DNA of 64,000 nucleotides from a candidate division WOR-3 bacterium (GTDB taxonomy: Bacteria > Hydrothermota > Tepidihabitantia > Tepidihabitantales > Tepidihabitantaceae): NCBI GenBank assembly GCA_965649295.1, contig CBFGKH010000005.1, positions 64,001 through 128,000 on the forward strand, written 5' to 3'. A program made the translations under genes and the position numbers. This document shows positions 8,190 to 25,382 of the stretch, one piece after another (the first letter of the stretch is position 1; each line of letters begins with the position of its first letter). The notes beneath the pieces are model-generated. The model saw nothing but the letters and a program-made list of their open reading frames with translations. It made no database searches and was not told the origin of the DNA.

Positions 8190-9035
8190 ATGAGGCGAGC
8201 AGCAGTGATTCTGGCAGCGTTCGCGGTCGCTACGATGCTGCCGTCGTGTCAGAAGTATGATCCGGCCGCCGACCGGGCAGCGATTGAAGAATTGGTGCGG
8301 GCCGACACTGTGCACTTTGCTGCGAGCACGCAGCATGACTCAACCGGGTCTGGTTTCCTGGTGGACGGAGAAACGACTTTTGTTTGGTGGCGCGGCGCAC
8401 AGACGCACGATTCGGCCTTGGTTGTGGTATCGGTTGAGAAGGATTCAGCAACTGTCACTTGGGCGCGACACAATTACGGCTGGCTGAGTGTGCTGCTGTT
8501 ACGGTGGGGACAGCCAGCTGTAATCTGGAACAAGCCGCTCACCGAACTGGTGCAGCTCTCAGCAGTCTATGTGCGTGTTGGTAAACAGACTGATGAGGAC
8601 CGGGGTTGGCGGTTCCGAAGAATATCGCTTGCAGCCGGCAGGTCGGATTCGGTGAACACGGTGCGAATAGATTCGCTGCGTATCCAGAGCTCGCTCAAGA
8701 ATATTCTCATTACCAATCCGCTTGCTACCTACTATCGTGCCGACAGTCTTGTATCGTTCACGCCCGGCGAGCAGGTGACACTGACCCTGTACACCAATGC
8801 GACGGACGGAGTTGCTTTTCTGCACACTTTCATTCTAGCTTGGCCGTTCTACATCAGGTTGCGGTTCGAGGACGCTGGTAACGGTGTTTTTACCGGCACT
8901 TGGCATGCTCAGGGCTGGCCGTCGTTCCGGTTTGCCATCTTTGACCTGATGAGTCGTTCGAGCATCTATCAGGAGACCGGGCCTTATGACTTCAATGGCT
9001 GGCTATTCCCGTATCGGATACAGACGGCAAGGTAG
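8190..9035 (+). CDS. uncharacterised lipoprotein (beta-rich)
   Basis: ATG 8190 after AAGGAG; MRRAAVILAAFAVATMLPSC lipoprotein signal; shares motifs with 16123-17214. Confidence 0.8.
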   Translation: MRRAAVILAAFAVATMLPSCQKYDPAADRAAIEELVRADTVHFAASTQHDSTGSGFLVDGETTFVWWRGAQTHDSALVVVSVEKDSATVTWARHNYGWLSVLLLRWGQPAVIWNKPLTELVQLSAVYVRVGKQTDEDRGWRFRRISLAAGRSDSVNTVRIDSLRIQSSLKNILITNPLATYYRADSLVSFTPGEQVTLTLYTNATDGVAFLHTFILAWPFYIRLRFEDAGNGVFTGTWHAQGWPSFRFAIFDLMSRSSIYQETGPYDFNGWLFPYRIQTAR

Positions 9036-9056
9036 CTAGTCTTCGGCAGGTGAACT

Positions 9057-9088
9057 GCTGGCGGCGGGCTTTTTGGCCCGCCGCCAGC
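9057..9088. terminator. perfect 13-bp hairpin between convergent genes
   Basis: GCTGGCGGCGGGC-TTTTTG-GCCCGCCGCCAGC. Confidence 0.75.
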
Positions 9089-9106
9089 TCGTTGTCTTGC
9101 CCCGGG

Positions 9107-10489
9107 TTACTCGACCCAGTCGACGTCGGTGAGGCCGAGTTCCTCTCTGGTGACGTTGCCAATGACCACCATGACGTAGCGGTCAGGGTTGATGTGCGTG
9201 CGCGCCGCTGCATTTACTTCCTGGAGTGTTGCGGCATTGACCAGGCGTGGGTAGCGCTCGAGCCAGTCAAGGCCAAAACCGTTCAGTTCGATGCTGGCGA
9301 CCTGTTCGAGTTTGCCGGTACCGGAACTATAGGTCAGGGGAAAGGAACCGGTGAAGTAGCCCTGGGCGCGAACAAGTTCAGCTCGGGTCAGGCCGCTCTC
9401 GCGAATCCGACGGAGTTCGCCAAATATCAGCCGCAATGCTTCAGCCGGGCGATTGGTTTCAACTGAAGAGCGGAAAGCGCCCTGATAGCGAGTACGATCG
9501 AACCAGGCATTGACGTCGTAGGCCAGGCCGGCCTTCTCGCGAACAGCAATGCCCAGCCGGGAGGAGAGGGCCGAGCCGCCGAGAATGTAGCTCATCAGCC
9601 GGGTGGCGATCATGTCTGGAGCGGTGACCGTTGTCCCGGGATGGCCGAGCATGATACTGGTTTGGTTCAGGTCGGGTCGGGTGACTAACTTGATGCGAGG
9701 CCGGTCTGGCCAGTTCGGAGCTGGAACTTCGGGCTTTGCCACCGGTCTGGGCTGCCAGCTAGCGAACCGTCGTTCCACTGCGGCGAGCACGCTTTCGCGT
9801 TGGACATCACCAACGACGATCAGGAATGAGTTATTGGGAACCCAGTGCTCGCGATGAAACGAGATGATGTCTTCGCGGGTGATGAGGGGAATCGTTGTCG
9901 TGTCGCCGCCGTCGGGGGTAGCCTGTGGGCCGGAGCCGAAGAGCAGGCGGTTGAACTCAAGTCGGGTGCGCGCAGTCGGAAAGTCATAGGCACGGCGCAG
10001 GCCGTCGAGTGACTGGGCAAGGGCGAGCTTGAGTTCAATTGAGTCGAAAGTCGGGTGGAGCACCGCATCGGCGAGCAGATCAAAGGCAACCTCCTTGTCC
10101 TTGGCGAGGACGCGCAGTTGGAGCCGGGAGTTGTCGAGTTCGGCCCGCCCCGAAAAGCTTGCGCCGAGGAAGTCAACAATGCTGGTTACCGAATCGGCGC
10201 TCATTGAACTGGTACCACGTGTCATTAGGTAGGCAGTGTGATGAGCAACGCCAGCTCGACCAGTCGGGTCCGAGGCGTGACCAGAACGGCAGATGAGCGC
10301 GATGTCAACGAGCGGTTGACGGTGTTCTTCGTAGGTGAGTACGACCAGCCCTGAGGCAAGGGAGTCACGGAAGAGAGGAAGTGCGGTTGCAGGCGAAATC
10401 AGCATGCCGACTGCCGATGTCAAAGTGCACAGCGAGAAGATAGTGGACATGGGAATTCGGTAGCGGCGAACTTCAGTTCGGCTTCTCAT
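9107..10489 (-). CDS. M16B (pitrilysin-like) peptidase, non-catalytic subunit, exported
   Basis: M16 fold without HxxEH (AHHTAYLMTRGT); SSRLGIAVREKAGLAY R/Y pair; hydrophobic N-terminal signal. Confidence 0.88.
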   Translation of the reverse strand: MRSRTEVRRYRIPMSTIFSLCTLTSAVGMLISPATALPLFRDSLASGLVVLTYEEHRQPLVDIALICRSGHASDPTGRAGVAHHTAYLMTRGTSSMSADSVTSIVDFLGASFSGRAELDNSRLQLRVLAKDKEVAFDLLADAVLHPTFDSIELKLALAQSLDGLRRAYDFPTARTRLEFNRLLFGSGPQATPDGGDTTTIPLITREDIISFHREHWVPNNSFLIVVGDVQRESVLAAVERRFASWQPRPVAKPEVPAPNWPDRPRIKLVTRPDLNQTSIMLGHPGTTVTAPDMIATRLMSYILGGSALSSRLGIAVREKAGLAYDVNAWFDRTRYQGAFRSSVETNRPAEALRLIFGELRRIRESGLTRAELVRAQGYFTGSFPLTYSSGTGKLEQVASIELNGFGLDWLERYPRLVNAATLQEVNAAARTHINPDRYVMVVIGNVTREELGLTDVDWVE

Positions 10490-11823
10490 CTTGTCCCCTT
10501 GTCAGCAACTAGCCAGCCGACTGTCAGGTGATCAGGTTTCAGCCATGTTCGGCAGAAGTCACGTACCTGTTCGCGCGTGACCGATTGAATGCGGTCCGGG
10601 TATTCGACAAACCAGCGCCAGTTGCCGGTAGTGATGTGGCTCGCAGCCAGCAGGTAGGCAATATCTGATATGTCATCCCGTTCAAAGATATGATTGGCGA
10701 GCACTCGGTTCTTGACGCCCTGTAGTTCTCTTTCGCTTATGAGCTCAGTTCCCATCCGTCTGACCTCATCGGCCACTGCGGTTTCAATTGCCGGCATCAA
10801 GCTCTCGGCGCGGGGTGTAATGTGGATGCGAAGAAGACCCGGGTCGCGTTCGACCGAGTTCCAAGCACTGGCACTGGTTGCGAGACCTTGCTCTCTTACG
10901 AGTCGGCGATAGAGTCGGGATGAGCGGCCGTCACCGAGTACGGCGGCGGCGACTTCGGCCACATAGAAAAGTGAATCGCGGATGCCAGGGCTACGATAGC
11001 CCATTATGAGGCTCGGCACGTTGACCCGACGCCGGACAGTGACTCGACGCTCGCCAGACTGCTGTGGTTCGATGTCGTAGTAGTCAGTCCTGACAACTGG
11101 TCGCCCCTTGATCCGGCCAAAATACTTGCGGGCAAGGTTGAATACTCGTTCGGGCTCGACATCACCGGACACGACCAGCAGGGCGTTGGCCGGGTTGTAG
11201 TAGCGGGTGTACCAGTCGCGAACCGCAGCCGCGGTGAAGCGGGCCACGTCGTCGGGCCAGCCGATGGTGGGGTTACGTTGGGGATTGGCCAGAAACGCCG
11301 TTGCCTCAAACTGCTCCCAGAGAGCTGACGTAGGGCGATTGTCACCCAGCCTACGTTCCTCGGCAACTACCTGGTGTTCACTTGTGAACTCGGAATCGAG
11401 GATGACACAACTGCCCATTCGCGCAGCCTCGATGCGAAGCGCGAACTCCCAGCGGTCACTGGCAAAGTCCTCGTAGTATCCGGTGTAGTAGGTTGAGGTG
11501 AAGCCGTTGTTGCGGCCACCAGCCGAATCAACGATGCGGTCAAAGTCGCCAGGCTGGTAGATGTTTGTGCGCTTGAAAGTCATGTGCTCGAGCATGTGGG
11601 AAATGCCGGTCAGGCCGATTGGCTCATCATAAGAGCCGACTCGGTAGTAAACATTGGTGGAGACGACCGGTGCGGACGAATCAACATAGACGATTATCTC
11701 CAGGCCGTTGGCCAACCGGTGTTCGAAAACATGGGACGATAGGTTGTCTTCAGCCCGAGCTAGAGTGGCTGCCAGTAGCAGTGATATCCAACACGAGCCA
11801 GAACGCAGTGTTGCAGTCAACAT
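10486..11823 (-). CDS. M16B zinc peptidase, catalytic subunit, exported
   Basis: GISHMLEHM (HxxEH), NGFTS, VVAEERR, YYNPANA, RSSRLYRRLV; signal peptide LLLAATLARA. Confidence 0.92.
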   Translation of the reverse strand: MLTATLRSGSCWISLLLAATLARAEDNLSSHVFEHRLANGLEIIVYVDSSAPVVSTNVYYRVGSYDEPIGLTGISHMLEHMTFKRTNIYQPGDFDRIVDSAGGRNNGFTSTYYTGYYEDFASDRWEFALRIEAARMGSCVILDSEFTSEHQVVAEERRLGDNRPTSALWEQFEATAFLANPQRNPTIGWPDDVARFTAAAVRDWYTRYYNPANALLVVSGDVEPERVFNLARKYFGRIKGRPVVRTDYYDIEPQQSGERRVTVRRRVNVPSLIMGYRSPGIRDSLFYVAEVAAAVLGDGRSSRLYRRLVREQGLATSASAWNSVERDPGLLRIHITPRAESLMPAIETAVADEVRRMGTELISERELQGVKNRVLANHIFERDDISDIAYLLAASHITTGNWRWFVEYPDRIQSVTREQVRDFCRTWLKPDHLTVGWLVADKGTR

Positions 11824-11861
11824 GATGTGTGCCTCGTATTAGGTTGGGATTGTCCTGAAAG

Positions 11862-11889
11862 AGCATAGCCGCTTGCCGTTGCGCTGCAA
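11862..11889 (-). promoter_or_regulatory. putative promoter of M16 pair
   Basis: minus strand TTGCAG, 16 nt, gcTATGCT. Confidence 0.5.
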
Positions 11890-11989
11890 GTGGTGCCAGC
11901 AGACGGCCGGACTGGTAGTGGCATCTGTCTTCATCATCACTGCGATGGCAGTTTCTCAATCACGGGAGTTTGTCGTACCAGTTGGCGGC

Positions 11990-12017
11990 TTGACAGGCGG
12001 TCTGATTTGATTAGATT
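11990..12017 (+). promoter_or_regulatory. putative promoter of exbB-exbD-tonB operon
   Basis: TTGACA, 16 nt, TAGATT. Confidence 0.6.
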
Positions 12018-12065
12018 GAGATGAGGACCTGTAGTTCGAGACAAACCCTTTAAGGAGGACTGAAA

Positions 12066-12692
12066 GTGATACAGGAATTCAAAGACGGCGGCGGCATGAT
12101 GTGGTTCCTGCTCGCCTGTGCTGTCATGGGCCTGGCGTTGACGTTGGAACGGTTGTTCACTCTGACTCTGCGCCTGCCTCTGAATGTTAAGCGTTTCAGT
12201 CGCCAGCTCGTCGAAACCATCGACAAGCAGGGCGTGAAGGCCGGTATCGAGCTCTGTAACAAGACGCCGAGTCCGGCGGCTCGAGTACTGGCTGCGGCGC
12301 TGGCCAAGGTTGATCGCGGCAAGACCGCAATGGAGGATGCGATTGTGCTGGCCGGGGCGACTGAGCTTGCGTTCCTTGATCGCGGAATGGCACTGATTGC
12401 TGGTCTGACAACAGTCGCGCCTTTTTTCGGTTTTCTGGGCACTGTTACCGGTATGATTGGCGCATTCAAAGCAGTGGCAGCAGTGGGTGAGGTCGATGCA
12501 ACTGTCGTCGCGTCCGGTATCGCCGAGGCACTAATTACGACCAAGTGGGGCCTGATGGTCGCGGCACCGCTGGCGATTGTTCACATCCTGTTCCAGGGCC
12601 GTGTCAACGGCTATCTGCGGGACATGGAGACTGCCTCAAGTGAACTGCTTGATTTCCTGATTGCCAAGGGTGTGATTGGTAAGGAGAGCTGA
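12066..12692 (+). CDS. exbB: MotA/TolQ/ExbB proton channel protein
   Basis: APFFGFLGTVTGMIGAF, VASGIAEALITT; SD AAGGAGG. Confidence 0.92.
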   Translation: MIQEFKDGGGMMWFLLACAVMGLALTLERLFTLTLRLPLNVKRFSRQLVETIDKQGVKAGIELCNKTPSPAARVLAAALAKVDRGKTAMEDAIVLAGATELAFLDRGMALIAGLTTVAPFFGFLGTVTGMIGAFKAVAAVGEVDATVVASGIAEALITTKWGLMVAAPLAIVHILFQGRVNGYLRDMETASSELLDFLIAKGVIGKES

Positions 12693-13120
12693 TGGCGCTT
12701 CGTCTCCGGAAGAAGGCCGCTGGTGCGCCGCCGAACATTCCGACGGCTTCGACCGGTGATATCGCTTTCCTGATACTCATCTTCTTCCTTTCCACCAGCG
12801 TTTTCGCCAAAGAGAAGGGATTGAAGATCGTACTGCCCGAAAAAGGTGAAGCAACGAAGATCAAGGCTGAGAACATCCTGCAGGTTGCCGTCAATCCCAG
12901 CGGTCAGGTCTTGATTGGCGACCGAGTCGTAGAGATTCCCGATGTGAAAGAGATCATCGTCGCCAAGATTGCCGAGAACCCTGAGTTGGCAATCTCACTG
13001 CGTGTCAGTCGTAGTGCTCCATACCACGTTATGGTTGATGTCTTTGACCAGCTCAAGCTGGCCAAAGCTGAACGCATCAGCCTGATACCGGTGCTCACCG
13101 AGGAAGGAGCGGCGCCATGA
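12692..13120 (+). CDS. exbD: biopolymer transporter ExbD
   Basis: IPTASTGDIAFLILIFF transmembrane segment with conserved Asp. Confidence 0.9.
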   Translation: MALRLRKKAAGAPPNIPTASTGDIAFLILIFFLSTSVFAKEKGLKIVLPEKGEATKIKAENILQVAVNPSGQVLIGDRVVEIPDVKEIIVAKIAENPELAISLRVSRSAPYHVMVDVFDQLKLAKAERISLIPVLTEEGAAP

Positions 13121-13539
13121 AGCGCATTGCTCAGAAGAAGGCGTCGCGGTCAGAAATCCCCACCGCCTCGACCGGCGATATTGCCTTCCTGCTCATCATC
13201 TTCTTTCTTGTCGGCACGACCTTCCGCGTCACCGGCGGTTTCAAGGTTGTCCTGCCAACAGCTGAGTCAACCGAACGGATTCTGAAGAAGCGCAATGCTG
13301 AGAACGTTTGGATTGACAAGTCAGGTAGGATATCGGTTGATGATAACCTCGTCATGCTAGCTGGCGTGGCCTCGGTGATGGCCGAAAAGGTAATCCAGAA
13401 CCCCGACGTGGTTGTTGTGCTGCAGGCTGATAAGGACGTCCCTTATGGTTTTGTTACCGATGTTCTTGAGGCGCTTAAGGATGCCCGAGCACTGCGGGTT
13501 ACATTTGCCACTGGGTATCGGACCGGAGGCGGAGGATAA
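13117..13539 (+). CDS. exbD: biopolymer transporter ExbD (second copy)
   Basis: IPTASTGDIAFLLIIFF, ADKDVPYG. Confidence 0.9.
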   Translation: MKRIAQKKASRSEIPTASTGDIAFLLIIFFLVGTTFRVTGGFKVVLPTAESTERILKKRNAENVWIDKSGRISVDDNLVMLAGVASVMAEKVIQNPDVVVVLQADKDVPYGFVTDVLEALKDARALRVTFATGYRTGGGG

Positions 13540-13541
13540 CG

Positions 13542-14174
13542 ATGGAGTATCGAAGCGCGACTATTCACGCCCTTGAATGGGAGGACCGCTACTACGCTGT
13601 TGCTCTTCGATTGGCTACTGTTGTCGCTCTCGTCATTGTGACCGGTGCTTTTCTCATACTGCCCCAGGAGTTCGTTGTTCGGCCATACCAGTTGCGACGG
13701 TCGGTTGAGATGGTGATGGAGGACCTGCCACCGCAACTGGAGAAGATTGCCGAACCTCCCAAGGCGGTGAAGCCGGCGACAGTGCCGGTGGCGGCGACCA
13801 ATGAGGCCGAGATTGAACAGCAGACGATCGAGGCTACGACATTCCAGGAGGTAATCAAGCGAACTGAGGAGACCGACATTCCAGTAGTGCCGTTCTGGAA
13901 GGTCGAGATCAAGCCTCAGCCGATTGATATTCCGGTGCCCAAGTATCCGGAAATGGCGCGCAATGCTGGGATTGAGGGGCAAACAGTGGTTGAAGCACTT
14001 GTCAACACTGACGGCACAGTCGGTGAAGCTCGGGTGCTGAAGAGTTCGGGCAATCAGTCGCTTGACGCTTCGGCAATCGAAGCAGCAATGCGTGCACGGT
14101 TCACGCCGGCAAGACAGCGTGACAAGCCGGTGCGGGTCTGGGTTTCGATACCATTCCGGTTCACGCTGCAGTAG
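13542..14174 (+). CDS. tonB: energy transducer TonB
   Basis: N-terminal TM helix, Pro-rich linker, C-terminal YPEMARNAGIEG..FTPARQRDKPVRVW. Confidence 0.9.
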   Translation: MEYRSATIHALEWEDRYYAVALRLATVVALVIVTGAFLILPQEFVVRPYQLRRSVEMVMEDLPPQLEKIAEPPKAVKPATVPVAATNEAEIEQQTIEATTFQEVIKRTEETDIPVVPFWKVEIKPQPIDIPVPKYPEMARNAGIEGQTVVEALVNTDGTVGEARVLKSSGNQSLDASAIEAAMRARFTPARQRDKPVRVWVSIPFRFTLQ

Positions 14175-14284
14175 CGGAGGCGGCCTCAGGTTGAGGCAGA
14201 GGAGCAATGATAAAGCGTGGCTGGATGCGAGCCACAAGCAAAGAGGGTGGCAGAAGGCCACCAGAAAAGCAAAGGAGGAGTCTG

Positions 14285-16009
14285 ATGCGTAATGTGCTGA
14301 TGGTCATGCTGCTTGTGCCGATGATGGCACTGGCGGTGGCAACACGACCAATGACCTCGCTGCCGGAGAGTGGTATCCTGCCACCGGCGCAGCCCGCTGG
14401 TGATGTCCGGCAGACGCCTAAGGCGTCTGTGCCGCTCGTAGGCAGGGTTGATACGGTCGGCGGTACCACCTATGACTGGTGGTATAATGGGGCTTGCTGG
14501 CGTCAGCTAGCCAACACGCCCGGATATGGTTTGCACGCAACCTGGATGTACTCGCAGGATGTGGCAAGCACGGCTTTCCCGGACCGGAACATGCGCTACA
14601 ACTTCTACGACTACTCGACGAACTCGTGGATGTGGATTGATCCTGATTACATGCAGTCTGGGGTCAACGTTTTTGTTGAAAGGTCCGGATATGGCAATCT
14701 TAGCGCCGACAGGACAACCGGCTGCGCAGTGATTGGCCGGCACACCACTGCTGGTAGTGGTGTTATGCACGCTGAGATGGCGCGGGATATCGCACCGGGC
14801 GCTGGCATCTTCGAGTATGCAAATGGCGGTGGGGTCACGAACAACTACCAATGGCCACCGCTGGCTGTTGGCAGCGATGGTGTGATTCACCAATTCATGA
14901 TTACGGCGACCTACTCGCTTGCCTATTCGAAGGTTCAGAACTGGCCAACGTATCAACCGCTTTTTACGACTGGCTGGGACCCAGGGACGACATTCCCAAC
15001 CCACAATATTGCGGCGTCGCGCGTGAGTCCGAAGGTTGCTTGTACCTGGACCGAGAACAGTGACCCGATCGACTACGGTTGTTTGCGTATATCTGAAGAC
15101 GGCGGCGCGACGTGGGGAACGACAATCAGACTCACTCCACCGCGTGTGTTCCGCGGCGATACTGTCGCCTCCTGGCATATAACTTCGCTCTTCCCTTTCT
15201 ACGATCAGAACGATCAGCTTCACATTGTCGGCAACGTCATGCCGGTCATAAACGACACTGGTTACATCATTCCGTCAGTGATCGTTCATTACTTCAATGG
15301 GACATACACGACTATCCACCGTGCCGGCTGCGATCCGAACAACCTGCAGGCGGCTGTCGGTTACAATGCCACCTATGCCTGTCGGCCGAGCATGGGCGAG
15401 GACTACGAGGGTAACCTGTTTGTTGCCTGGGAGCAGTTTGACTCGGCCAATGTCGAACCATTGACCTCGGTGCTGCGGGCTGACATCTTTGTTGCCGGTT
15501 CGCGTGACAACGGCGTTACCTGGTCGCCGGCGTTGAAGATAACCGACGCGGGCACACGCTCGAACCGTTTCCCGACTATCACCGACTGGGTTGACGAGTC
15601 GAACAACGTTCATATCCTCTACGAGAATGACCAGACTGCCGGTTTCTGGGTTCAGAACGAGCATCCCGGCCAAATCAATCCGGTCTTTGTCCACACTGTG
15701 CCCAAGAGTCTGATAATCGGTATTGCTGAAGGCGGTTCAGCAACGCCGGCGCGCGTTGAGCTTTCGGTCACGCCGAATCCGGTGCAGAATCGGGCGTCGA
15801 TTTCGTATGCGGTGCCAAGGGCCGGCACAGTTTCGCTCGTGCTCTACGACGCTGCTGGCCGTCCGGTTCAGACGCTGGTTAACGGTACTAAGGCAGCGGG
15901 TCGCTACACTGCAACGCTCGACGCCAGCAGATTGGTTAACGGCGTCTACTTCTACACACTTACGACTGGCGGCAACTCGCTGAGCAATAAGCTCACGGTT
16001 ACGCACTGA
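14285..16009 (+). CDS. exported beta-propeller/Asp-box (BNR-like) protein with T9SS type-A-like C-terminal sorting domain
   Basis: ATG 14285 after AGGAGGAG; signal peptide; SEDGGATW and SRDNGVTW Asp boxes; CTD PNP...LYDAAGR...GVYF..KLTV. Confidence 0.8.
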   Translation: MRNVLMVMLLVPMMALAVATRPMTSLPESGILPPAQPAGDVRQTPKASVPLVGRVDTVGGTTYDWWYNGACWRQLANTPGYGLHATWMYSQDVASTAFPDRNMRYNFYDYSTNSWMWIDPDYMQSGVNVFVERSGYGNLSADRTTGCAVIGRHTTAGSGVMHAEMARDIAPGAGIFEYANGGGVTNNYQWPPLAVGSDGVIHQFMITATYSLAYSKVQNWPTYQPLFTTGWDPGTTFPTHNIAASRVSPKVACTWTENSDPIDYGCLRISEDGGATWGTTIRLTPPRVFRGDTVASWHITSLFPFYDQNDQLHIVGNVMPVINDTGYIIPSVIVHYFNGTYTTIHRAGCDPNNLQAAVGYNATYACRPSMGEDYEGNLFVAWEQFDSANVEPLTSVLRADIFVAGSRDNGVTWSPALKITDAGTRSNRFPTITDWVDESNNVHILYENDQTAGFWVQNEHPGQINPVFVHTVPKSLIIGIAEGGSATPARVELSVTPNPVQNRASISYAVPRAGTVSLVLYDAAGRPVQTLVNGTKAAGRYTATLDASRLVNGVYFYTLTTGGNSLSNKLTVTH

Positions 16010-16017
16010 CCGCTACC

Positions 16018-16048
16018 GCGGGGCGGGCAGTCATTTTGCCCGCCCCGC
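16018..16048 (+). terminator. 12-bp GC hairpin, intra-locus terminator or mRNA stabiliser
   Basis: GCGGGGCGGGCA-GTCATTT-TGCCCGCCCCGC followed by ACTTTGGTT. Confidence 0.65.
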
Positions 16049-16122
16049 ACTTTGGTTGTGAACAAGCTTCGTGGTCGTACGGCCACGCACGCATTTTCCC
16101 ACCCAGAACAACCCAAGGAGGC

Positions 16123-17214
16123 ATGATGCGCATCCTGCGGCCTTTTTTTCAATCGAAGTGCCAGACATGCGCGGTCACCTTGCCGTTAACGGTCATCACC
16201 GCCGTCTCCATTCTAGTCGGCGGCTGCGGTACCGAACCACCGGCAGACTGGCAGTGGTGGTCGAGCGCTGACAGCAGCGCGGTTCGTGCAGAGCTGGCCC
16301 GCTGGCGTAATACCATTGACATGCGTCAGGCATTGGTTGATACGTTGCGATTGAATCTATCGCTGCCACTAGTATTTACTGACAGTTCTTCAGCGAGCGG
16401 CGAAACTCTCTACAAGTTTAAGCACCTTCTGGCGGTTTGGACTGATATTGATACGGTCGGTCATTACGATGGCTATCTCTTTGGCCGTACCAACGACACT
16501 GTCGCGATGACTGACACCTTCTGTCAGGTCAGTTTCTGCGACACGGTGCGGGCGGCGCGGCTCCATTTCCGCTATGATAGCCTGTGGGTAGTCGGCTATC
16601 GTCCAGACACCATTGTGGACACGACTCGCACGCCGCCGGAGACATCCATCGTCTATGTTGCTAGCTATACCGGGGCGCGGGGATTCAGTGAACCACAAGT
16701 TTTCGTGCGGAGCTACGACTGGACCGCCCGGCGGCTACTGCATTTCAGCAAGACGCCGGGAGTAGCCGAATATCTACTGCGGAGACTGACGGGCTGTGCG
16801 ATGCTTGTTCCGACTCCGCAGGATGCACCGAGCATTACTTGGGTTACGTTGGCTCGTCCCGGCCAGGTTGATACTTTCTTCTATTCCCCTCGGCCGGCAC
16901 CAGATTTGCGGGGCCTCTACAATCTTCGTCATGTTGATTCGCTGTACACAATTGGCCAGAACGAGCAGTTTGATATTACGTTTGTGACTAGTGGTGATTC
17001 GATGACCGATCGTGAACGGTTCTATGTCTGTGTAAACGGGCTGAAGAGAGACATCACGACCGGACCAAAGCGTGGCAGCGGTACAATCAGCATTGCCGAT
17101 ACCGGCTACCAGCACATCTATGTGCAGGCGGTCTCGCTATCCGGTATCACGACTACGGTTAGCACCTACAAGACTTCCTGCTGGGCGATTCCAGTTAGAG
17201 TCACGCCGCGGTGA
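16123..17214 (+). CDS. uncharacterised lipoprotein
   Basis: ATG 16123 after AAGGAGG; lipobox-like LVGGC; stop directly precedes the SD of the TBDR. Confidence 0.75.
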   Translation: MMRILRPFFQSKCQTCAVTLPLTVITAVSILVGGCGTEPPADWQWWSSADSSAVRAELARWRNTIDMRQALVDTLRLNLSLPLVFTDSSSASGETLYKFKHLLAVWTDIDTVGHYDGYLFGRTNDTVAMTDTFCQVSFCDTVRAARLHFRYDSLWVVGYRPDTIVDTTRTPPETSIVYVASYTGARGFSEPQVFVRSYDWTARRLLHFSKTPGVAEYLLRRLTGCAMLVPTPQDAPSITWVTLARPGQVDTFFYSPRPAPDLRGLYNLRHVDSLYTIGQNEQFDITFVTSGDSMTDRERFYVCVNGLKRDITTGPKRGSGTISIADTGYQHIYVQAVSLSGITTTVSTYKTSCWAIPVRVTPR

Positions 17215-17225
17215 TTGGAGGTCAA

Positions 17226-20033
17226 ATGAAAGCCAAACTCAATCAGTTTACGGGGGTTCTACCAGCAGTGTTTGTCTTGCTCGGTCTCGCTGGAACTGCC
17301 GTTGCGGCTGAAACTGGGCGTATCCGCGGCCGAGTGTTTGATGCGGCGACTGGTGAGCCGCTGGTCGGTGCAAGTGTTGTGATTGAGGGCACGGACCTCG
17401 GCGCAGCAACTGATGCCAATGGTGAATACCTGATCGTCAATGTGCCGGTCGGGCGAGTAACGCTGGTAGTATCCTACATCAGCTACTCGACGGTCCGTAG
17501 GGCTGACGTTCCGGTTCTGCTTGACCAGACCGTTACCGAGAGTTTCGCTCTGCGGGTGGGTGCAATTCCGATGAACGAGGTTGTTGCCACCTCGCGGCGG
17601 GCAGCGATCGTTAGGACCGACCCGACTACCAGCCGCTATATGGGCAGCGAGGAGATTGCCAAGATGCCGGTGCAGACGCTGGCTGACATCGTTCGGCTCC
17701 AGGCGGGTATTGTCAGCAGTCAGGGATCAGGTCTGGACGCAGGCCTCCATCTGCGCGGTGGTCGGACAAACGAGGTGATGTACTACGTTGATGGTGTTGG
17801 GACATCGGATCCTCTCTACGGTTATCAGGCAGCACGTGTCAATCCTGAGGCGACCGCCGAAGTCGTTGTTATCGCTGGTGGTTTTGACGCCGAATACGGT
17901 GAGGCAATGTCTGGCATCATTCAAGTAATAACTAAGGAGGGTAAGGACGTCTTCTCGGGCCGACTTGGTTACACGACCGACGAGTTTCTCCCGAACGCGC
18001 TGAATTTCGGCGACAACCGGCTCGAACTCTCATTGGGTGGTCCCTTTCCCGCAATTCGAAGACTGCGGTACTTCCTGTCGGGCGAGCTATACGCTACTGA
18101 TGATTACAACCCGATGCGATATCGGTTAAAGCACCAGCAGCGCGAGGACTACAAGTTGACTGGCAAGCTGACCTACTCGCTTCCGATCAATCAGGGGCTA
18201 CGGCTTAGTGCTGACGGTTTTCTCGCTCGCGAACAATATGAACTCTATCCTTATGTCAGGGATGACGAGAACCATCTCGGATTCAAGTACAATTTGGACC
18301 ACTTTCTGTCGCGTCGCGAGAAAGTGGTCAAGATTGGCATTTCCGCTAACCATATGCTGACGCGTCAAACCTACTACACTGCCAGGTTGGGGTACTTCTT
18401 CAATGAGCGAGTTCAGGCGGTCAGGGATTTGGAGCGAGAGGCTACCGCGCCGCGGGGATTCTTTGGTGACTATATCTTCAAGGCAGAAGATACGGTTCGT
18501 AAGGATCCTTCAGTGCTTTACCGACGAATGCCAGACTACGTCGAGCAGGCCAAGGACAACACTAACAACCCATTTGGTGTCTTCAACCTCTTCTACGGCA
18601 AGGGCGATTATCGTGGTTTCCTGCTGCACTGGTCTGATGTTACCACTTTGAAGGGCGATATCACTCATAACATCGGCAAGGTACACGAACTGAAGACGGG
18701 CGCTGAGGTGAGGCTAAACGGCCTTCATCGGCGTTATAACTCACTGCCATGGACTGACGACCCATTTGTCGATTCCTATGACTACTACCCGACAAATGTT
18801 GCTTTCTTTGCTCAAGATAGGATGGACTTCGAGGACCTGGTCGTCCGCGCCGGCTTGCGGCTCGACTATCTGGATCCGGCGGCAATGAAGCGTGCTAACC
18901 CCACTGATATCGGTGATACGAGTATGGTGGCGGCAAAGACGAAGCTGAAGCTATCGCCGCGGCTGGGCGTTTCTTTTCCAATCACCACCAGTACCAAGTT
19001 CCGTTTCAGCTATGGCCACTTCTATCAGACGCCTGCCTATCGTTTTCTCTACGATAATATATCTTCGGCTGCCTACACGCGCGGAAACCAGATTATTGGC
19101 AATCCGGACCTGCAAGCACAACAGACCGTTGCCTATGAACTCGGGTTGGAGCAACAGGTAACCGAATTGGTTATCGCTGATTTCACCGCCTATTACAAAG
19201 ATGTGTTCGACTTACTGGGAACACGCTATCAGCCTGCGGTTCCCCTTGGTTACTATCCGCTGGTCAATGAGGAATACGGTAGTGTGCGCGGTTTTGAGGT
19301 GGGCCTGCAGAAGCTGCTGGCCAACTACTGGAATGCGCGAGTTTCCTATGGTCTGTCACTTGCTCGCGGCACTGCGTCGTCAACCTATGAGTGGTACTAC
19401 GAGCGTTACCGCTACGGAACTGACCCGGTCACTGGTCAACAGATGGAGCCGCCGCGTCGAGACTATGCTCTGGAATTCGATGAGCGGCATAACGCAAAGG
19501 TGTCAGTTGGGCTTGATTTGCCGTCTGACTTTGGTTTTGCACCGTTGCGCGACCTCTCTGGTTCCATCTTGTTCAATTATGGCTCGGGGCTTCCTTACAC
19601 GCCGCTAGAAGTACGCAAGCTCAACTCCGGACGCCCGACCGGCGAACGCAATTCGGCGAGGATGCCGCCGCGTTTCCAAGCCGACTTGAATGCCGCGAAG
19701 TTCGTTCCAATCGGGCGCTTGCGGCTGGGACTGAATCTGACCGTCATTAATCTGATGGGAACTGAGAACGTCGAATGGGTTTACGGCGCGACGGGACTGC
19801 CTGACGATGATGGTTATGCCGCGACTCTCTCGCCCGCCAATTGGGCGGTAGGTTCGCGTATCACGAGCCTTTCAAGTCAATACCACCCTGCGCGGGACCG
19901 AAATCACGATGGCTACATCAGTGCGGAAGAGGAGTATGTTAGTTACAAGGTTGCCTACCTCGACTTTGTCAACAATCCAATGAATTTCGGCCCACCGCGT
20001 CAGGTTAAGGTCGGTATTACCTTAGAGTTCTAG
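17226..20033 (+). CDS. TonB-dependent receptor with N-terminal carboxypeptidase-regulatory-like domain
   Basis: GRIRGRVFDAATGEPLVGASV N-domain; plug LHLRGGR..YYVDG, GGFDAEYG; LSPRLGVSFP; C-terminal PRQVKVGITLEF; ATG 17226 after GGAGG. Confidence 0.92.
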   Translation: MKAKLNQFTGVLPAVFVLLGLAGTAVAAETGRIRGRVFDAATGEPLVGASVVIEGTDLGAATDANGEYLIVNVPVGRVTLVVSYISYSTVRRADVPVLLDQTVTESFALRVGAIPMNEVVATSRRAAIVRTDPTTSRYMGSEEIAKMPVQTLADIVRLQAGIVSSQGSGLDAGLHLRGGRTNEVMYYVDGVGTSDPLYGYQAARVNPEATAEVVVIAGGFDAEYGEAMSGIIQVITKEGKDVFSGRLGYTTDEFLPNALNFGDNRLELSLGGPFPAIRRLRYFLSGELYATDDYNPMRYRLKHQQREDYKLTGKLTYSLPINQGLRLSADGFLAREQYELYPYVRDDENHLGFKYNLDHFLSRREKVVKIGISANHMLTRQTYYTARLGYFFNERVQAVRDLEREATAPRGFFGDYIFKAEDTVRKDPSVLYRRMPDYVEQAKDNTNNPFGVFNLFYGKGDYRGFLLHWSDVTTLKGDITHNIGKVHELKTGAEVRLNGLHRRYNSLPWTDDPFVDSYDYYPTNVAFFAQDRMDFEDLVVRAGLRLDYLDPAAMKRANPTDIGDTSMVAAKTKLKLSPRLGVSFPITTSTKFRFSYGHFYQTPAYRFLYDNISSAAYTRGNQIIGNPDLQAQQTVAYELGLEQQVTELVIADFTAYYKDVFDLLGTRYQPAVPLGYYPLVNEEYGSVRGFEVGLQKLLANYWNARVSYGLSLARGTASSTYEWYYERYRYGTDPVTGQQMEPPRRDYALEFDERHNAKVSVGLDLPSDFGFAPLRDLSGSILFNYGSGLPYTPLEVRKLNSGRPTGERNSARMPPRFQADLNAAKFVPIGRLRLGLNLTVINLMGTENVEWVYGATGLPDDDGYAATLSPANWAVGSRITSLSSQYHPARDRNHDGYISAEEEYVSYKVAYLDFVNNPMNFGPPRQVKVGITLEF

Positions 20034-20042
20034 GGAGGCGAG

Positions 20043-23000
20043 ATGAGAGTTAGCAGAATGGCTGCTCACCGGCAGATTCTATCACTCGCGCTGATAGTTG
20101 GATTGGCGAGCATAGCTACCGCACGGACTGCCGGTAACCCGTGGCGACCACCAAGGGTATTGGACTATCGTTCGTATCAGAAGAACCAGTGGCGGTTACC
20201 GATCACGAACTACGGAACATTCGGTTACGGTGTGAACGAGGGTGGCGGCGAGTGGCCCGCAGGCTCAGGAGACATCTACATTTACGGTGCCGGTATCTGG
20301 ATTGGTTCGCTTCGTCGTTCGACTGCTGGTCGCGATACGCTTGTCACCTTCGGTTACAACCCGAACTCGGGGGCGACAGAAATGTCGCCGGGCGCTTACG
20401 ACAATGCGCCAGGTGGTTATGCCGGCCGCGACTTTGAGCGAGTGTATGTGTACCCCAATGACTGGCCACCGAACCCGCTTGACTTTCCCAGCGCGTTGCA
20501 GGACTCAGTCGCGACCTATTTGCGTTTGCCACCAAATCTCGACGACACCATTTACTTCTATTTCGTTCCGCGTGCGGCAGTCTCATCGGGTGATGCTTGG
20601 GCGGTGTACAATGACAGAGATCCCGCTCGGCACGTCGCTGGACGAACACCACGCCCGCTGGGAATCGAGGTATATCAGAGCATATACTCCTGGACGCTGC
20701 CCTGGAACAAGGATATCGTCTTTTTCAAACTTGACATCAGAAACCGATCGGCTGACACACTACGTGATGTCTATCTTGGGATGGTTTGTGACCCCGATGT
20801 CGGCCAGGCCCAGGATGACCGTGCTGGGCTTTGCCTTGCTAAATACGTCTATAAGGACGACGCCAGGTCGGACTCAGTTTATGCTGACAATCTCGGTTAC
20901 GTCTGGAGCACAGAACCATCACCAGCCGGATTTGTTGGGTTCGACTTTCTCCAAAGTCCATTTTGGCGCGACCAGAATGGCAGGATGCGAGAAGTTGCTC
21001 CGAAACCAGGAAACGACAGCATCTATCCCAACGGCCGAGATGACAACGACAACGGCTTGGTTGATGAACCGGCAGAGGGCCGACAGCTAGGAATGACCGC
21101 GTTCAAGATTTTCGCACTCTCAAATGACCCAACGACCGATGCAAAACAATACCAGGCCCTGGCTGGTTACGACTGGAATCAGTCACCGCCGGTTTATAAC
21201 CCATACGATTCGACTGATGCTGCTCCCGATGACAAACGATTCTTGCAGGCGACTGGGCCAGTGAGTCTCGCACCGGGCGAGATGACGACCGTGACCATTG
21301 CCGTTATTGGTGCTGTTGCCGATAGAACTGGCAGTCCTAGCACTTGGCCCTACTACCTTGCTCTTGCCTCACGAGCAGCACAGAATGCCTACGATAACAA
21401 CTGGATAATGCCTGAACCGCCACCAAGCCCGAACCTGACGACAATTCCTGGCGACGGCAGGGTGACGTTAGTCTGGGATGACCTACCCGAAAGTGCCAGG
21501 GACCGTTTCTATCCCTTGGCCCCGTCGCTCAACAGCCCCTTCTACCGCGAACAGGACTTCCAGGGCTACAAGGTCTATCGTAGTCGTACTGGTCAACCTG
21601 GTTCTTGGCAGCTTCTTGCTCAGTATGATCGCGCCGACGGGATTGTCTGGCAGGATACGAGTGTAGTCGAGTCGCTACGCACCAAGGCGACTGATGTCGG
21701 ACTGGCCTACAGTCTTGTTGACTCGAGCAGCTTGAGATTGGGCTTCCCGTACTACTACGCCGTGACCTCCTTCGATATCAACTTTCTTGGTGTTGATACA
21801 GTGGGCTCAGTTACTGTTCCGCGCGAGACGCTGTCGCTTGAATCAGGTCAGAGTGCAGTTCGAGCCGTACCCCGCACGCAACCAGCCAACTACATCGCCC
21901 CCGCGACTGAGGTCGTTCAGGTAGCTGGCAGTGATCGTCAGAATCGAATCCTCACCTTTGAGCCGTTGGCCTTGATTCCTCATGCCGTCAGGGATGATAC
22001 TTTCCGATTCCGTTTCCTGCCTGCTGTGTATGATTCGGTCCAACGCGCTCCGCGCTATCGGTTTTCCGTCACCAATGCCGCCGGCGAAACCATCGTGCCA
22101 CTTCAGCAGACAACGGTTATAATCAGCGATACTGCTACTGACACGCGGCGTTTTGTGCCGACACGATTTGACTCGGTGATTACCTTCCTCAAGGAGGAGA
22201 CGGTACTGGTCGTGCGGGAAGGCGTACAGGTAGAGTCGGTTTACACCGAAACAACCAAAGCCTGGCTGCCAGTTGCGCAGGTGACCGTGACGCTGCGGAT
22301 GCGTCAGATACCGACACAGTTCTTCGACCGGGTTGTCGTCAGTGGTCGCTATCCGCGGGACTCGGTGCAGTTACGTGATGACGGAGCGTCGTCGAAGGTG
22401 CTCTGGGCATACCGTGGCTCAAACTATCGTATCGTTTGGCGTGAAAAGGGCGGTGGCAGTAGTGCGCTGACTTGTGACGTTTACGACATTGACAATGATG
22501 TGGCAGTGCCTTACGGCGGCTTGCCGAGTATGTCGCCAGCAGAATCGATCGTCCGAGACCGCGCCAACGGCTGGTCGTTTCAGACAGCGACCGCGGGCGC
22601 CGACACGCTGCTGCCTGGTCAGACGCGATTCTTCTACATCTGCGGCTGTCGTTTTCAGTTCCGTCCCGGTGCTCGGCCGATAATTGACACGGTCCTGCCG
22701 GCGCCAGGCGATACTTGGCTGGTCTACAACAAGGACCTGAACCCTGCGCCCGTTTATGCGGCTTTCGACGTTGTTTTCCGCAAGATGGCTTATGCTGATA
22801 CGGCCCAGCGATTGAATGTTAAGGTCGTCCCCAATCCCTACCTGGTCCGTAACGAATGGGAGCGACACCGGGATTTTCGAAAGCTGAAGTTCATCAATTT
22901 GCCAGACCACTGCACGATTCGGATCTATAATCTTGCCGGCGATTTGGTTCGTACACTGACTCACGATGCCACGAGTCCGGCTGTTGGTGGCCAACCCAAC

Positions 23001-23129
23001 CAGTACGGTGGTGATGAGGATTGGGACCTGCTCAACGAAAGCCGGCAGAAGCCGGCGCCCGGAGTATACATCTTCCACGTCCAGTCAGAGCAGGGTAGCC
23101 AGACCGGCAAGTTCGTTCTCATATTCTAG
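20043..23129 (+). CDS. large exported protein (Ca-binding motif, FN3-like module) with variant T9SS/FlgD-like C-terminal sorting domain
   Basis: signal peptide; WPAGSG..IYGAGIWIG; PPPSPNL..GDGRVTLVWD..FQGYKVYRS..YYYAVTSFD; KVVPNPY..IRIYNLAGDLVRTL..WDL..GVYIFHV..KFVLIF. Confidence 0.8.
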   Translation: MRVSRMAAHRQILSLALIVGLASIATARTAGNPWRPPRVLDYRSYQKNQWRLPITNYGTFGYGVNEGGGEWPAGSGDIYIYGAGIWIGSLRRSTAGRDTLVTFGYNPNSGATEMSPGAYDNAPGGYAGRDFERVYVYPNDWPPNPLDFPSALQDSVATYLRLPPNLDDTIYFYFVPRAAVSSGDAWAVYNDRDPARHVAGRTPRPLGIEVYQSIYSWTLPWNKDIVFFKLDIRNRSADTLRDVYLGMVCDPDVGQAQDDRAGLCLAKYVYKDDARSDSVYADNLGYVWSTEPSPAGFVGFDFLQSPFWRDQNGRMREVAPKPGNDSIYPNGRDDNDNGLVDEPAEGRQLGMTAFKIFALSNDPTTDAKQYQALAGYDWNQSPPVYNPYDSTDAAPDDKRFLQATGPVSLAPGEMTTVTIAVIGAVADRTGSPSTWPYYLALASRAAQNAYDNNWIMPEPPPSPNLTTIPGDGRVTLVWDDLPESARDRFYPLAPSLNSPFYREQDFQGYKVYRSRTGQPGSWQLLAQYDRADGIVWQDTSVVESLRTKATDVGLAYSLVDSSSLRLGFPYYYAVTSFDINFLGVDTVGSVTVPRETLSLESGQSAVRAVPRTQPANYIAPATEVVQVAGSDRQNRILTFEPLALIPHAVRDDTFRFRFLPAVYDSVQRAPRYRFSVTNAAGETIVPLQQTTVIISDTATDTRRFVPTRFDSVITFLKEETVLVVREGVQVESVYTETTKAWLPVAQVTVTLRMRQIPTQFFDRVVVSGRYPRDSVQLRDDGASSKVLWAYRGSNYRIVWREKGGGSSALTCDVYDIDNDVAVPYGGLPSMSPAESIVRDRANGWSFQTATAGADTLLPGQTRFFYICGCRFQFRPGARPIIDTVLPAPGDTWLVYNKDLNPAPVYAAFDVVFRKMAYADTAQRLNVKVVPNPYLVRNEWERHRDFRKLKFINLPDHCTIRIYNLAGDLVRTLTHDATSPAVGGQPNQYGGDEDWDLLNESRQKPAPGVYIFHVQSEQGSQTGKFVLIF

Positions 23130-23138
23130 GAGGCGGCC

Positions 23139-24206
23139 ATGAAACTGATCAGAAACTGTTTGTTACCGAGGACCAGTCGTTGTTGCCAGGGGGTAGTAAC
23201 AGCCTTGCTTTTGGCCTTGTTTGTTGCTCCGGCTGAGGCAGCCTTTACCAAGATCGGTATGGCCGGTATGCCGTTCCTCAAGATTGGTGTTGGCCGCTGC
23301 GCTGGAATGGGCGACGCGTTCGTTGCGATTGCTGATGATGCGTCAGCTGCATACTGGAATCCTGCCGGGCTAGCCCTGATCCAGAGCCGTCAGGCTGTAT
23401 TCAATCATGTCGATTGGCTTGCCGATATCAACCACGAGTTTATCGCGCTTGTAATGCCTACCACGGCTGGAAGCTTTGGGGCGGCAGTGACGGCTGTAGA
23501 CCTTGGTCAGTTCGAACAAACAACGATCAACGAACCCCAGGGGACAGGCGTCACTTTTCGTGGTTCGGATATTTGCATTGGTGTCAGCTATGCGCGGCAA
23601 TTCACTGACAAGCTGGCGTTCGGCGTCACTGCCAAAGTCCTGTCTGAGCAGATATGGAGTGTTGGCGCAACAGGTGCGGCGTTCGATTTTGGTCTGCTCT
23701 ACAACACAGGCTGGCGCAATCTCCGTTTAGGAATGGCTGTCGCCAATTTTGGCCCGGACATGCATTACTCTGGCGACTTGCTCAACTTTACGCACGACCC
23801 GGCCGATTGGGACTGGCCTTGGACACGAGAGCCTATCCCCGGTACCTATCTGACCGAGTCGTGTGCTTTGCCGGTAGTGTTCCGATTCGGACTCGCTTAT
23901 GACTTCTTGCGCAATGATCATTCCTACCTGACCGCCGCGGCTGACCTCAACCATTTCAACGACGTGAACGAGAAAGTCAATTTCGGCATCGAGTATTACT
24001 ACAATCCACTCTATCTTCGTACCGGCTATGTCCTCAATACAGACTTCGGTTATGCAGGGGACATCGGCTGGTCGTCCGGTCTTTCGGCCGGTGCTGGGTT
24101 CAGGGTCCGGCCCTTGAGCAGATTCGGTATTAGTCTTGACTACGACTATCGAAACGTTGGTCTGCTGGGAGTGTCGCATCGGCTGACGCTGAGCTTCGAT
24201 TTCTAG
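23139..24206 (+). CDS. PorV/PorQ (UPF0164, FadL-like) outer-membrane barrel
   Basis: FLKIGVGR.AGMGDAFVAIADDASAAYWNPAGLA; ends SHRLTLSFDF. Confidence 0.88.
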   Translation: MKLIRNCLLPRTSRCCQGVVTALLLALFVAPAEAAFTKIGMAGMPFLKIGVGRCAGMGDAFVAIADDASAAYWNPAGLALIQSRQAVFNHVDWLADINHEFIALVMPTTAGSFGAAVTAVDLGQFEQTTINEPQGTGVTFRGSDICIGVSYARQFTDKLAFGVTAKVLSEQIWSVGATGAAFDFGLLYNTGWRNLRLGMAVANFGPDMHYSGDLLNFTHDPADWDWPWTREPIPGTYLTESCALPVVFRFGLAYDFLRNDHSYLTAAADLNHFNDVNEKVNFGIEYYYNPLYLRTGYVLNTDFGYAGDIGWSSGLSAGAGFRVRPLSRFGISLDYDYRNVGLLGVSHRLTLSFDF

Positions 24207-24428: not shown

Positions 24429-25382
24429 TTGAAAAGACTAGTCGGCGGCGTAGCGTTGATCTTGGCTCTCGATGCTGCTCGAGGAGCGGTGCAGCTCGCT
24501 CAGGAGAGACTTAGTCTCGACGGCTGGATACGCGGAGCTGCGCATTACTGGTTCATCAGCAGTGGCGGACTAACGAGCAGTGAGTTCGTGTTCGAGCCGA
24601 CTGATTGCGCGGTAGGGATGGTTGGGCGTCTGAATGAACGGGTGTCGATGCGAGTTTCAGCCGGCCTCAATTCCTACGGCGCATTCTGGCTCCAGGACGC
24701 CTGCGTACGGTTTGAATGGAACGGTGGTTGGGGTCTGACAGCTGGTCAGTTTCTTGTACCAGTCAGTCTTGATGCATCGCTACTGCCCGAGGACTACCCG
24801 CTCCAATTCAACGGTGCGCTCCACACTGGCTACGTGAAGCCAGCGGGACTCTACGACGTTGGCTTAATGGGAGAGTACCGTAGTTGCCGACTTCAGGCGA
24901 TGGTCGGTGTGGTCAATGGCCTTGGCAAGGATGCTTGGTGGGGGGATAATCGCTTTCGCAAGGACCTCTGCGGTCGAGTGATTGGACAGCCGTTCTTAGC
25001 GGCTCCTTGGTTTGGTGCTCGGTTATATCGAGCGCTCGAAGCGGATGGTCAGGCTTGGTTAACGTGGGGTATCGAAGCCACCCACGATGTCGGGCCATTG
25101 CGACTCGCGGCCGAGTACCACAATCACATCTCGCGTAATGCCCATCACAACTCGGCTTACGTTCAAGGTCTCTACTGTATTGGTCGTTTCGAACCGGGTT
25201 TGCGGCTTGAAACGATAGTTCCCGCGGGTAAACGGCCCGAGTACAACATTACAGTCGGGTCGTCTTTTCAACCCTATCAAGGTCTGCCCGTCAAGACGGC
25301 AATACATTACTCATTACACGGCAGCCTTGAAGGTCGCTGGTCTGTCGGTGAAGTTCTTGTAAGGCTACTAACTAGCCTCTAG
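24429..25382 (+). CDS. putative porin (OprO/OprP-like anion-selective porin family)
   Basis: signal peptide; LQDA.V, LTAGQF.VP, YDVGLM, GVVNG.G...DN..KD..GR; alternating beta-strand pattern. Confidence 0.65.
   Translation: MKRLVGGVALILALDAARGAVQLAQERLSLDGWIRGAAHYWFISSGGLTSSEFVFEPTDCAVGMVGRLNERVSMRVSAGLNSYGAFWLQDACVRFEWNGGWGLTAGQFLVPVSLDASLLPEDYPLQFNGALHTGYVKPAGLYDVGLMGEYRSCRLQAMVGVVNGLGKDAWWGDNRFRKDLCGRVIGQPFLAAPWFGARLYRALEADGQAWLTWGIEATHDVGPLRLAAEYHNHISRNAHHNSAYVQGLYCIGRFEPGLRLETIVPAGKRPEYNITVGSSFQPYQGLPVKTAIHYSLHGSLEGRWSVGEVLVRLLTSL

Follow-up and report, generated by a model that had tools for sequence, protein, structure and literature searches.

A TonB-dependent receptor, a secreted partner and a PorV-family barrel as the conserved core of a locus in a WOR-3 bacterium

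A TonB motor opens the plug of a TonB-dependent receptor (TBDR) via the TonB box of the receptor. Among the closest described systems are the SusC/SusD (RagA/RagB) pairs of Bacteroidota utilization loci, and a CarboxypepD-like N-terminal extension of TBDRs has been tied to TonB interaction in Bacteroidetes (PMC12204202). In the Fus and YddB-PqqL systems, described from Proteobacteria, the M16 protease is a two-domain, single-chain and iron-regulated protein (PMC6793856). In type IX secretion (T9SS), the tails of PorU and PorZ are reported to stay uncleaved, with 108 and 96 residues and an extra hairpin (PMC11285876); PorZ remains attached to PorQ, and protection and anchoring of the cargo may be functions of cognate barrels (PMC10202324). 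Here we describe a locus at positions 8190-24206 of a 64,000-nucleotide stretch of DNA (the window) from a candidate division WOR-3 bacterium (genome of 2.28 Mb, completeness 100%, contamination 0.58%), in which a TBDR gene is followed by genes for a secreted protein of 1028 residues and for a PorV-like barrel.

The original prediction had described this locus as a self-contained module for protein or peptide utilization. Its gene list was recovered in full, each open reading frame (ORF) and family being confirmed at its coordinates. The 16-kb locus proved to be three separable blocks and not a single self-contained system: the blocks split in relatives and an M16B peptidase pair is only loosely linked to them. 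The invariant core is the trio formed by the TBDR, the 1028-residue partner with an atypical C-terminal domain (CTD) and the PorV/PorQ-family barrel. We consider it rather likely, by analogy, that these three proteins form an outer-membrane importer comparable to SusC/SusD and powered by the housekeeping Ton motor.

A conserved trio of receptor, partner and barrel

The TBDR gene (17226-20033, + strand; its ORF opens at 17211 and the ribosome-binding site (RBS) favours the ATG at 17226), the partner gene (20043-23129, +) and the barrel gene (23139-24206, +) follow each other directly. A match to the partner was found in 107 of 121 WOR-3 genomes. Forty WOR-3 loci, a non-random sample picked from the strongest listed matches (15 orthologous to the locus and 25 others), were compared. 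The TBDR gene was directly upstream of the partner gene in all 40, and a PorV gene was directly downstream in 38 of the 39 informative loci, as scored by script; at the single miss (L040) the partner gene is split and PorV is still next to it.

A wider sample of at least 74 loci, a few of them WOR-3-like and one of them a repeat (L043 of L004), was obtained from a scan of GTDB genomes; all results on this sample, here and below, hold among the matches listed. By title, these loci belong to KSB1, Ignavibacteria, Calditrichota, Zixibacteria, Marinimicrobia, Cloacimonadota, Eisenbacteria, Poribacteria, Glassbacteria, Gemmatimonadetes, Rhodothermales and Stahlbacteria. Of 68 informative loci, 53 had the TBDR gene no more than 400 bp from the partner gene and 62 had it no more than 5 kb away, and PorV adjoined the partner in 61 of 65; the exceptions to synteny were L047, L060, L077, L098, L101 and L103. 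A survey of synteny had been suggested originally for WOR-3, KSB1, Zixibacteria and Ignavibacteria; across the loci compared here the trio is largely kept, and the Ton genes and the M16 genes are variable.

The trees of receptor and partner, built from 80 paired sequences, were largely congruent: of 53 well-supported TBDR splits, the partner tree contained 45, and in the converse comparison 48 of 54 splits were recovered. The partner family comprises 4,419 cluster representatives (50% identity, E<=1e-30). A second trio is present in the same genome (contig C3:135368-146467), where a 677-residue lipoprotein, a TBDR, a partner, a PorV and a C11 clostripain-like protein ending in a CTD-like tail are encoded. 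No description of the trio was found in the literature searched, which held few subscription papers and did not extend to supplements, where such clusters might be listed. What is new here is the peptidase-linked branch of WOR-3, the block structure of the locus and the limit set on the M16 link.

The TBDR is composed of a CarboxypepD-like N-terminal extension, as in SusC, a plug and a barrel. A conserved TonB-box-like stretch follows the extension (about residues 119-128, counted from the ORF start at 17211). Against TIGR04056 (SusC/RagA) the TBDR scored 60.2 bits, below the cut-off of 368.25. In its last loop an EF-hand-like acidic motif (about 19900-19935, residues 896-909) was observed; about 60% of the 80 trio TBDRs in the alignment share it. 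Neither of the SusD families PF07980 and PF14322 had a match in the locus or in the whole genome, with positive controls detected, confirming that no SusD-like gene accompanies the receptor. A complex prediction for the TBDR barrel (plug omitted) and partner N-domain of a relative (L056) gave a score of 0.00 with the controls not folded, a result that counts neither for nor against contact.

The AlphaFold model of the partner (pLDDT 88.1, pTM 0.81) is almost entirely beta, with a beta-supersandwich at about residues 35-460, an FN3-like domain, variable beta domains and a long atypical CTD at about residues 920-1028. No Pfam family was recognized and a PDB sequence search gave no match; an ESM Atlas search returned unnamed clusters only, and Foldseek with the whole model was uninformative. 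The best match of the supersandwich was glucodextranase in its non-catalytic N-domain (Z 19.9, rmsd 2.8, 235 aligned residues, 9% identity), followed by N-domains of glycoside hydrolase (GH) families GH15, GH94 and GH116, by mutarotase-like proteins and by the periplasmic domain of YidC (Z 12.8). Identification of the partner as a glucoamylase or phosphorylase was rejected because only non-catalytic N-domains were matched and a helical catalytic barrel is absent from the model.

The partner could nevertheless be a surface-tethered enzyme or adhesin that produces or retains substrate near the TBDR without docking to it, similar to SusG or to a surface glycan-binding protein (SGBP) on a private anchor. 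Its fold is common to galactose-mutarotase-like and GH174 proteins (Z 13-15), Asp, Trp and Tyr residues are conserved in it, and the middle domains are large and variable in partners of 612-1280 residues. This explanation appears doubtful: the same conserved N-domain occurs whether the cargo relates to glycan, peptide, peptidoglycan or phosphatase, which would not be expected of an enzyme specific for one substrate, no His or Glu of this domain is conserved at 75% or more, and the position of the partner next to the TBDR is strict. Minimal partners of 612-672 residues (L060, L063, L078, L108) were seen to keep the N-domain and the tail with most middle domains gone; L063 encodes two of them in tandem.

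The CTD that had been assigned to the 1028-residue protein is present but atypical. It is about 108 residues long, all-beta in the model, and scored 18.4 bits against TIGR04183, below the cut-off of 23; it contains an insertion after the fifth strand, and its best matches, which are weak, were the tails of PorZ and PorU. A partner-tail profile gave 151 and 116 bits on the two trio partners of the genome, a score that for the window partner follows by construction since the profile was built from the same families, and 19.6 bits at most on the rest of the genome, which holds 92 ordinary CTD matches. Judged by its sequence, the partner tail is a distinct variant class of CTD.

The barrel encoded at 23139-24206 scored 207.6 bits against NF033709 (cut-off 90), which assigns it to the PorV/PorQ family; it remained below the equivalog cut-offs for PorV (69/250) and PorQ (90/220) and matched the PDB chain of PorV, 6h3i_F, with an E-value of 1.9e-5. 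It would be the private anchor of the partner CTD. Nine PorV-like ORFs were detected in the genome at 36 bits or more. A further PorV/PorQ-like barrel of the window (33991-34926, - strand) reached 81.8 bits (cut-off 90), and on contig C4 (107562-112303) a CTD-like protein precedes a 581-residue PorV-family protein with a C-terminal extension that by eye resembles OmpA. The idea of a TBDR that works with a CTD protein and its own PorV in place of SusD is supported by the synteny, by the congruent trees and by the distinct CTD class.

The Ton block and type IX secretion

The genes exbB, exbD, exbD and tonB (12066-14174, +; starts at 12066, 12692, 13117 and 13542) are translationally coupled, with gaps of -1, -4 and 2. 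A sigma-70-type promoter of exbB was recognized at 11990-12017 (+) by a promoter scan, with 10 of 12 consensus positions matched, and an element resembling it precedes exbB in most WOR-3 loci inspected. The region as a whole contains 13 promoter-like sites against 8.2 +/- 3.0 in shuffled sequences, and the call therefore rests on conservation and not on the scan. Back-to-back promoters had been proposed; the rightward one holds, while a leftward promoter near 11862-11890 was not recovered by the scan (about 7/12 by eye) and found no support in relatives.

The next gene (14285-16009, +; ORF opening at 14207) encodes an Asp-box (BNR) protein with an ordinary type-A CTD, which travels with the Ton block. 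Its PDB matches are confined to the Asp-boxes (E 0.003-0.05). A GH33 sialidase would carry an Arg triad and a Tyr/Glu pair in a six-bladed propeller; conserved Arg-Pro, Arg, Glu and Tyr residues in the sequence of the Asp-box protein recall a propeller active site. Its paralogues are encoded on contig C4, and tandem duplicates occur in L014, L175 and L187. A GC-rich hairpin of 13 pairs (16018-16048, +) lies 3' of the gene, and all 15 orthologous loci have a hairpin in this position, its sequence varying. The nine co-oriented genes described originally do form a run, but one divided by a strong hairpin, and this is one of the sites at which the locus is broken up in relatives.

Beyond the hairpin, an all-beta lipoprotein with a C-terminal Ig-like domain is encoded (16123-17214, +; the ORF opens at 16036 and the RBS favours 16123/16126). 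Its model (pLDDT 86.5) is nearly all-beta, with long strands, two of them very long (34 and 38 residues), and the Ig-like domain, and is unlike SusD. A PDB sequence search was empty, and a fold search yielded only Ig-like matches below Z 8, SusD not being listed. This lipoprotein is a WOR-3-restricted accessory that accompanies either the trio or the Ton block.

The Ton block and the Asp-box gene were joined to the trio in 15/15 orthologous loci. An exbB gene was near the trio in 8 of the remaining 25 WOR-3 loci and, in the wider sample, in 8 of 74 (among the matches listed). Several WOR-3 families have Ton genes joined to the trio, and in L074, L110, L112 and L113, three of which are titled Cloacimonadota, they lie between TBDR and partner. 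The Ton block also occurs without the trio in metagenomes (14/66 loci viewed in detail), with the break after the Asp-box gene in L152, L154, L157 and L175 and after the lipoprotein in L187, L192, L197 and L203. Three ExbB-like genes were found in the genome: that of the locus, one of a Tol-like set on contig C4 and one of a PorV/TPR-linked set on contig C1. The ExbB-ExbD2-TonB set of the locus is probably the housekeeping Ton motor of the cell.

A search of the genome for T9SS genes was successful in part. SprA (445.8 bits in frame, cut-off 200) and two near-full-length PorU-like genes (370 and 340 bits, cut-off 420) were detected, and SprA had a match in 42 of 43 WOR-3 genomes, 40 of them over the cut-off. 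GldL exceeded its cut-off in 0/43 WOR-3 genomes, with four weak matches in long ORFs, against 3/3 controls. GldM was not found in this genome (7/31 Bacteroidota over the cut-off), nor was GldN in three genomes (0/3 against 2/2 controls), and very divergent homologues of all three proteins may escape such searches. The combination of SprA with GldL under the cut-off was also seen in four trio carriers outside WOR-3 (G121-G124).

As SprA was detected but none of GldL, GldM and GldN, the Ton set of the locus, with or without the TBDR, might power type IX export in place of GldLM, with the partner and PorV as secretion components. The 92 CTD matches of the genome need export, and where the trio is absent the Ton block is still accompanied by a CTD protein, the Asp-box protein. 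We regard this explanation as unlikely. With its normal plug and its conserved stretch resembling a TonB box, the TBDR needs a TonB, as do the other TBDR-like genes of the genome; most trios outside WOR-3 are without Ton genes and have substrate-specific cargo; and divergent Gld homologues may have been missed. Moreover, a Ton-like operon on contig C1 (68980-77762) encodes a CTD-like protein, a PorV-family barrel, an 828-residue TPR-like protein, ExbB, ExbD, ExbD, TonB and a 287-residue protein, and this set is the better candidate for energising a T9SS without GldLM. The 287-residue protein has a TonB-box-like stretch near its N-terminus, and a similar operon is present in L047.

The M16B peptidase pair and the substrate

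Two M16B genes are transcribed divergently from exbB. M16a (10486-11823, -) contains the zinc motif HXXEH as HMLEH, and the motif is absent from the adjacent M16b (9107-10489, -), so that an active and an inactive subunit lie side by side. Signal-like stretches were seen by eye at both N-termini, in line with the export proposed for the pair. The nearest structure to M16a is 3amj, a 'zinc peptidase active subunit' (E 2e-78, residues 31-439); the heterodimeric peptidase 3amj/3ami of Sphingomonas sp. A1 has the same arrangement of an active HXXEH subunit and an adjacent inactive one. A difference from that peptidase is that most family members have a carboxypeptidase-like gene of the M14 type, with a CTD, beside the pair.

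The M16 pair is a neighbour of the locus at family level only. An orthologue of M16a was present in 12/12 family genomes and next to exbB in 2/12. The pair was adjacent in 2 of 14 informative orthologous genome loci and in 0 of 25 other WOR-3 loci, some of which are short; in the near-complete genomes G024, G030 and G095 it is on the contig of the locus, at a distance of 160-210 kb. In 10/10 other family genomes it follows a gene of 645-700 codons, and a similar gene in L003 encodes an M14 carboxypeptidase; the pair usually belongs to an M14-M16a-M16b operon of its own. Among metagenome loci (66 of 80 examined, 14 at about 35% identity having been dropped, and close kin not being independent), the pair was adjacent in 10 of 40 informative loci, or in 13 when a divergent M14 at the contig end is counted, all with ExbB identity of at least 71%.

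These data were considered with regard to the possibility that all 16 kb of the locus serve protein import as a dedicated unit, the M16B pair acting on the polypeptides taken up by the TBDR in the way that FusC acts for FusA. Divergent arrangement of exbB and the M16 operon is seen in this genome (G000), G035 and G075, which do not form one clade, and adjacency may be ancestral in the family; taken with the metagenome loci, this suggests that the M16-exbB link is probably old within one family and was repeatedly lost. In two distant trios (L076 and L114, among the matches listed) a single-chain M16 and an M1/M28 peptidase directly follow PorV, and WOR-3 is listed among peptidase-rich lineages (PMC4411801). 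A dedicated unit is nonetheless very unlikely, given the scarce adjacency, the distant position in near-complete genomes and the separate M14 operon. In L152 and L157, furthermore, the M16 and Ton genes are kept and the TBDR is absent, which indicates that the M16 link follows the exbB promoter region and not the TBDR. Neither the conservation of the pair beside the locus nor its role as a dedicated processor, as suggested earlier, was upheld.

The locus does not appear to be a Fus system. As in Fus and YddB-PqqL, a TBDR lies near an exported M16 protease; unlike there, the protease is a two-gene M16B pair, divergent and not stably clustered with the TBDR, and not a two-domain single chain such as FusC or PqqL. 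No FusA or YddB chain was among the 26 PDB matches of the TBDR profile at E<=1e-5. A search with a Fur-box consensus gave 0 matches against 0.56 expected by chance; other regulators are possible.

In order to approach the substrate, 87 of 249 representatives of neighbour clusters were scanned against Pfam. Some trios lie amid genes for LacI, sugar ABC transporters, GH144, GH2, GH130, GH97 or carbohydrate-binding modules (CBM), others amid M14, M20, S51 or M1/M28 peptidases or an oligopeptide transporter (OPT), and further ones amid amidase, sulfatase or phosphatase genes. The presence of the trio in clear glycan loci of other phyla means that it is not protein-specific. In the trees, the trios linked to glycan genes are separate from the WOR-3 branch, and the TBDR of the window nests among loci that carry a C11 peptidase after PorV. 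A C11 clostripain-like peptidase follows PorV in 15 of the 25 other WOR-3 loci and in the trio on contig C3, with its His and Cys motifs intact in 15 of 16 locus proteins and in that of this genome; it could be a maturation enzyme instead. Because of the peptidase neighbours, the sequences tilt the estimate for the WOR-3 substrate slightly towards peptides or proteins over glycans. The protein or peptide diet proposed originally is plausible for the WOR-3 branch but does not extend to the trios in glycan loci elsewhere.

At the left edge of the locus, a separate lipoprotein gene (8190-9035, +) is convergent with M16b, with a terminator-like hairpin between them (9057-9088, strand not assigned). 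The lipoprotein is possibly a distant relative of the trio lipoprotein family (hhalign probability 66%), and its orthologues, present in 18 of 27 genomes, are unlinked. Its membership in the locus was rejected because, in all 10 family genomes where a match was obtained, these orthologues are near neither the trio nor the M16 pair; it is an incidental neighbour. Further out, two tandem CsgG/LpoB-like genes (4824-6184, -) lie upstream of a MoxR ATPase, and a porin-like gene (24429-25382, +) follows porV and is not conserved there in relatives.

Proposed mode of action and comparison with known systems

An importer of the SusC/SusD kind, our preferred explanation of the trio, would operate as follows. 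The partner would be exported through its CTD by the SprA translocon, the gene for which is present. Its long atypical CTD would stay uncleaved and bound to the co-encoded barrel, by analogy with PorZ on PorQ, and would hold the partner beside the TBDR, where the beta-supersandwich may capture the substrate as a lid or binding protein. The adjacent ExbB-ExbD2-TonB would then open the plug of the TBDR via the TonB box, as is established for other receptors. The substrate would vary by clade, with the slight preference for peptides or proteins in WOR-3. The M16B pair, encoded in an operon of its own, would be a general peptidase of the periplasm that may digest imported peptides without being a dedicated part.

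Several findings weigh against this proposal, besides the built-in score of the tail profile. Inheritance as an operon also yields synteny and congruent trees by itself, and L047, L077, L098 and L103 (among the matches listed) are without TBDR or PorV. The structural matches of the supersandwich, to N-domains of glycoside hydrolases and phosphorylases, lean towards carbohydrate rather than peptide, although no substrate is named by them, and the conserved residues D191, D250 and D259 of the N-domain make an enzyme role possible. The extra hairpin of PorU and PorZ was termed 'functionally not relevant' (PMC11285876), and on that account the length of the tail is no proof of retention. Finally, the C11 gene was found in 0/15 orthologous loci, that is, the window's own clade is without it. 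A more far-reaching version, in which the trio is a new class of three-protein importer that replaces SusCD in a dozen FCB-related lineages, imports polypeptides in WOR-3 and has a co-encoded Ton motor that also drives a T9SS without GldLM, is improbable.

Many degraders of sediments, hot springs and marine habitats outside Bacteroidia seem to be without susD, and their uptake loci would therefore go unnoticed in searches based on susCD. Should the trio be a functional stand-in, it would be a marker for such utilization loci, in a very large unannotated family, and the role of PorV-family barrels would widen from secretion housekeeping to the anchoring of transporter partners. For WOR-3, with SprA, about 90 CTD cargoes and GldL/M/N undetected, the energisation of a T9SS without a motor of its own becomes a testable question. 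As in the canonical T9SS, SprA, two PorU-like genes, many PorV-family barrels and 92 CTD matches are present; the difference lies in GldL, GldM and GldN, which were not found in this genome.

The arrangement of a barrel gene beside that of a long-tailed CTD protein is shared with PorQ-PorZ, PorV-PorU and the type B pairs with PorP/SprF, and surface anchoring via a retained CTD, as proposed here for the trio, has its parallel in pairs of the PorQ-PorZ type (PMC10202324). Those pairs serve secretion, attachment of lipopolysaccharide or gliding, whereas the pair described here is tied to a TBDR. With SusC/SusD (RagA/RagB) the trio shares a TBDR with a CarboxypepD-like extension, directly followed by a co-evolving surface partner, and a position amid variable glycan or peptide cargo genes, like that of SusCD in polysaccharide utilization loci. 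It differs in the partner: the place of a helical SusD lipoprotein is taken by a T9SS-CTD protein that is all-beta and has a barrel of its own. By this analogy the trio would work like SusCD without being a member of that family.

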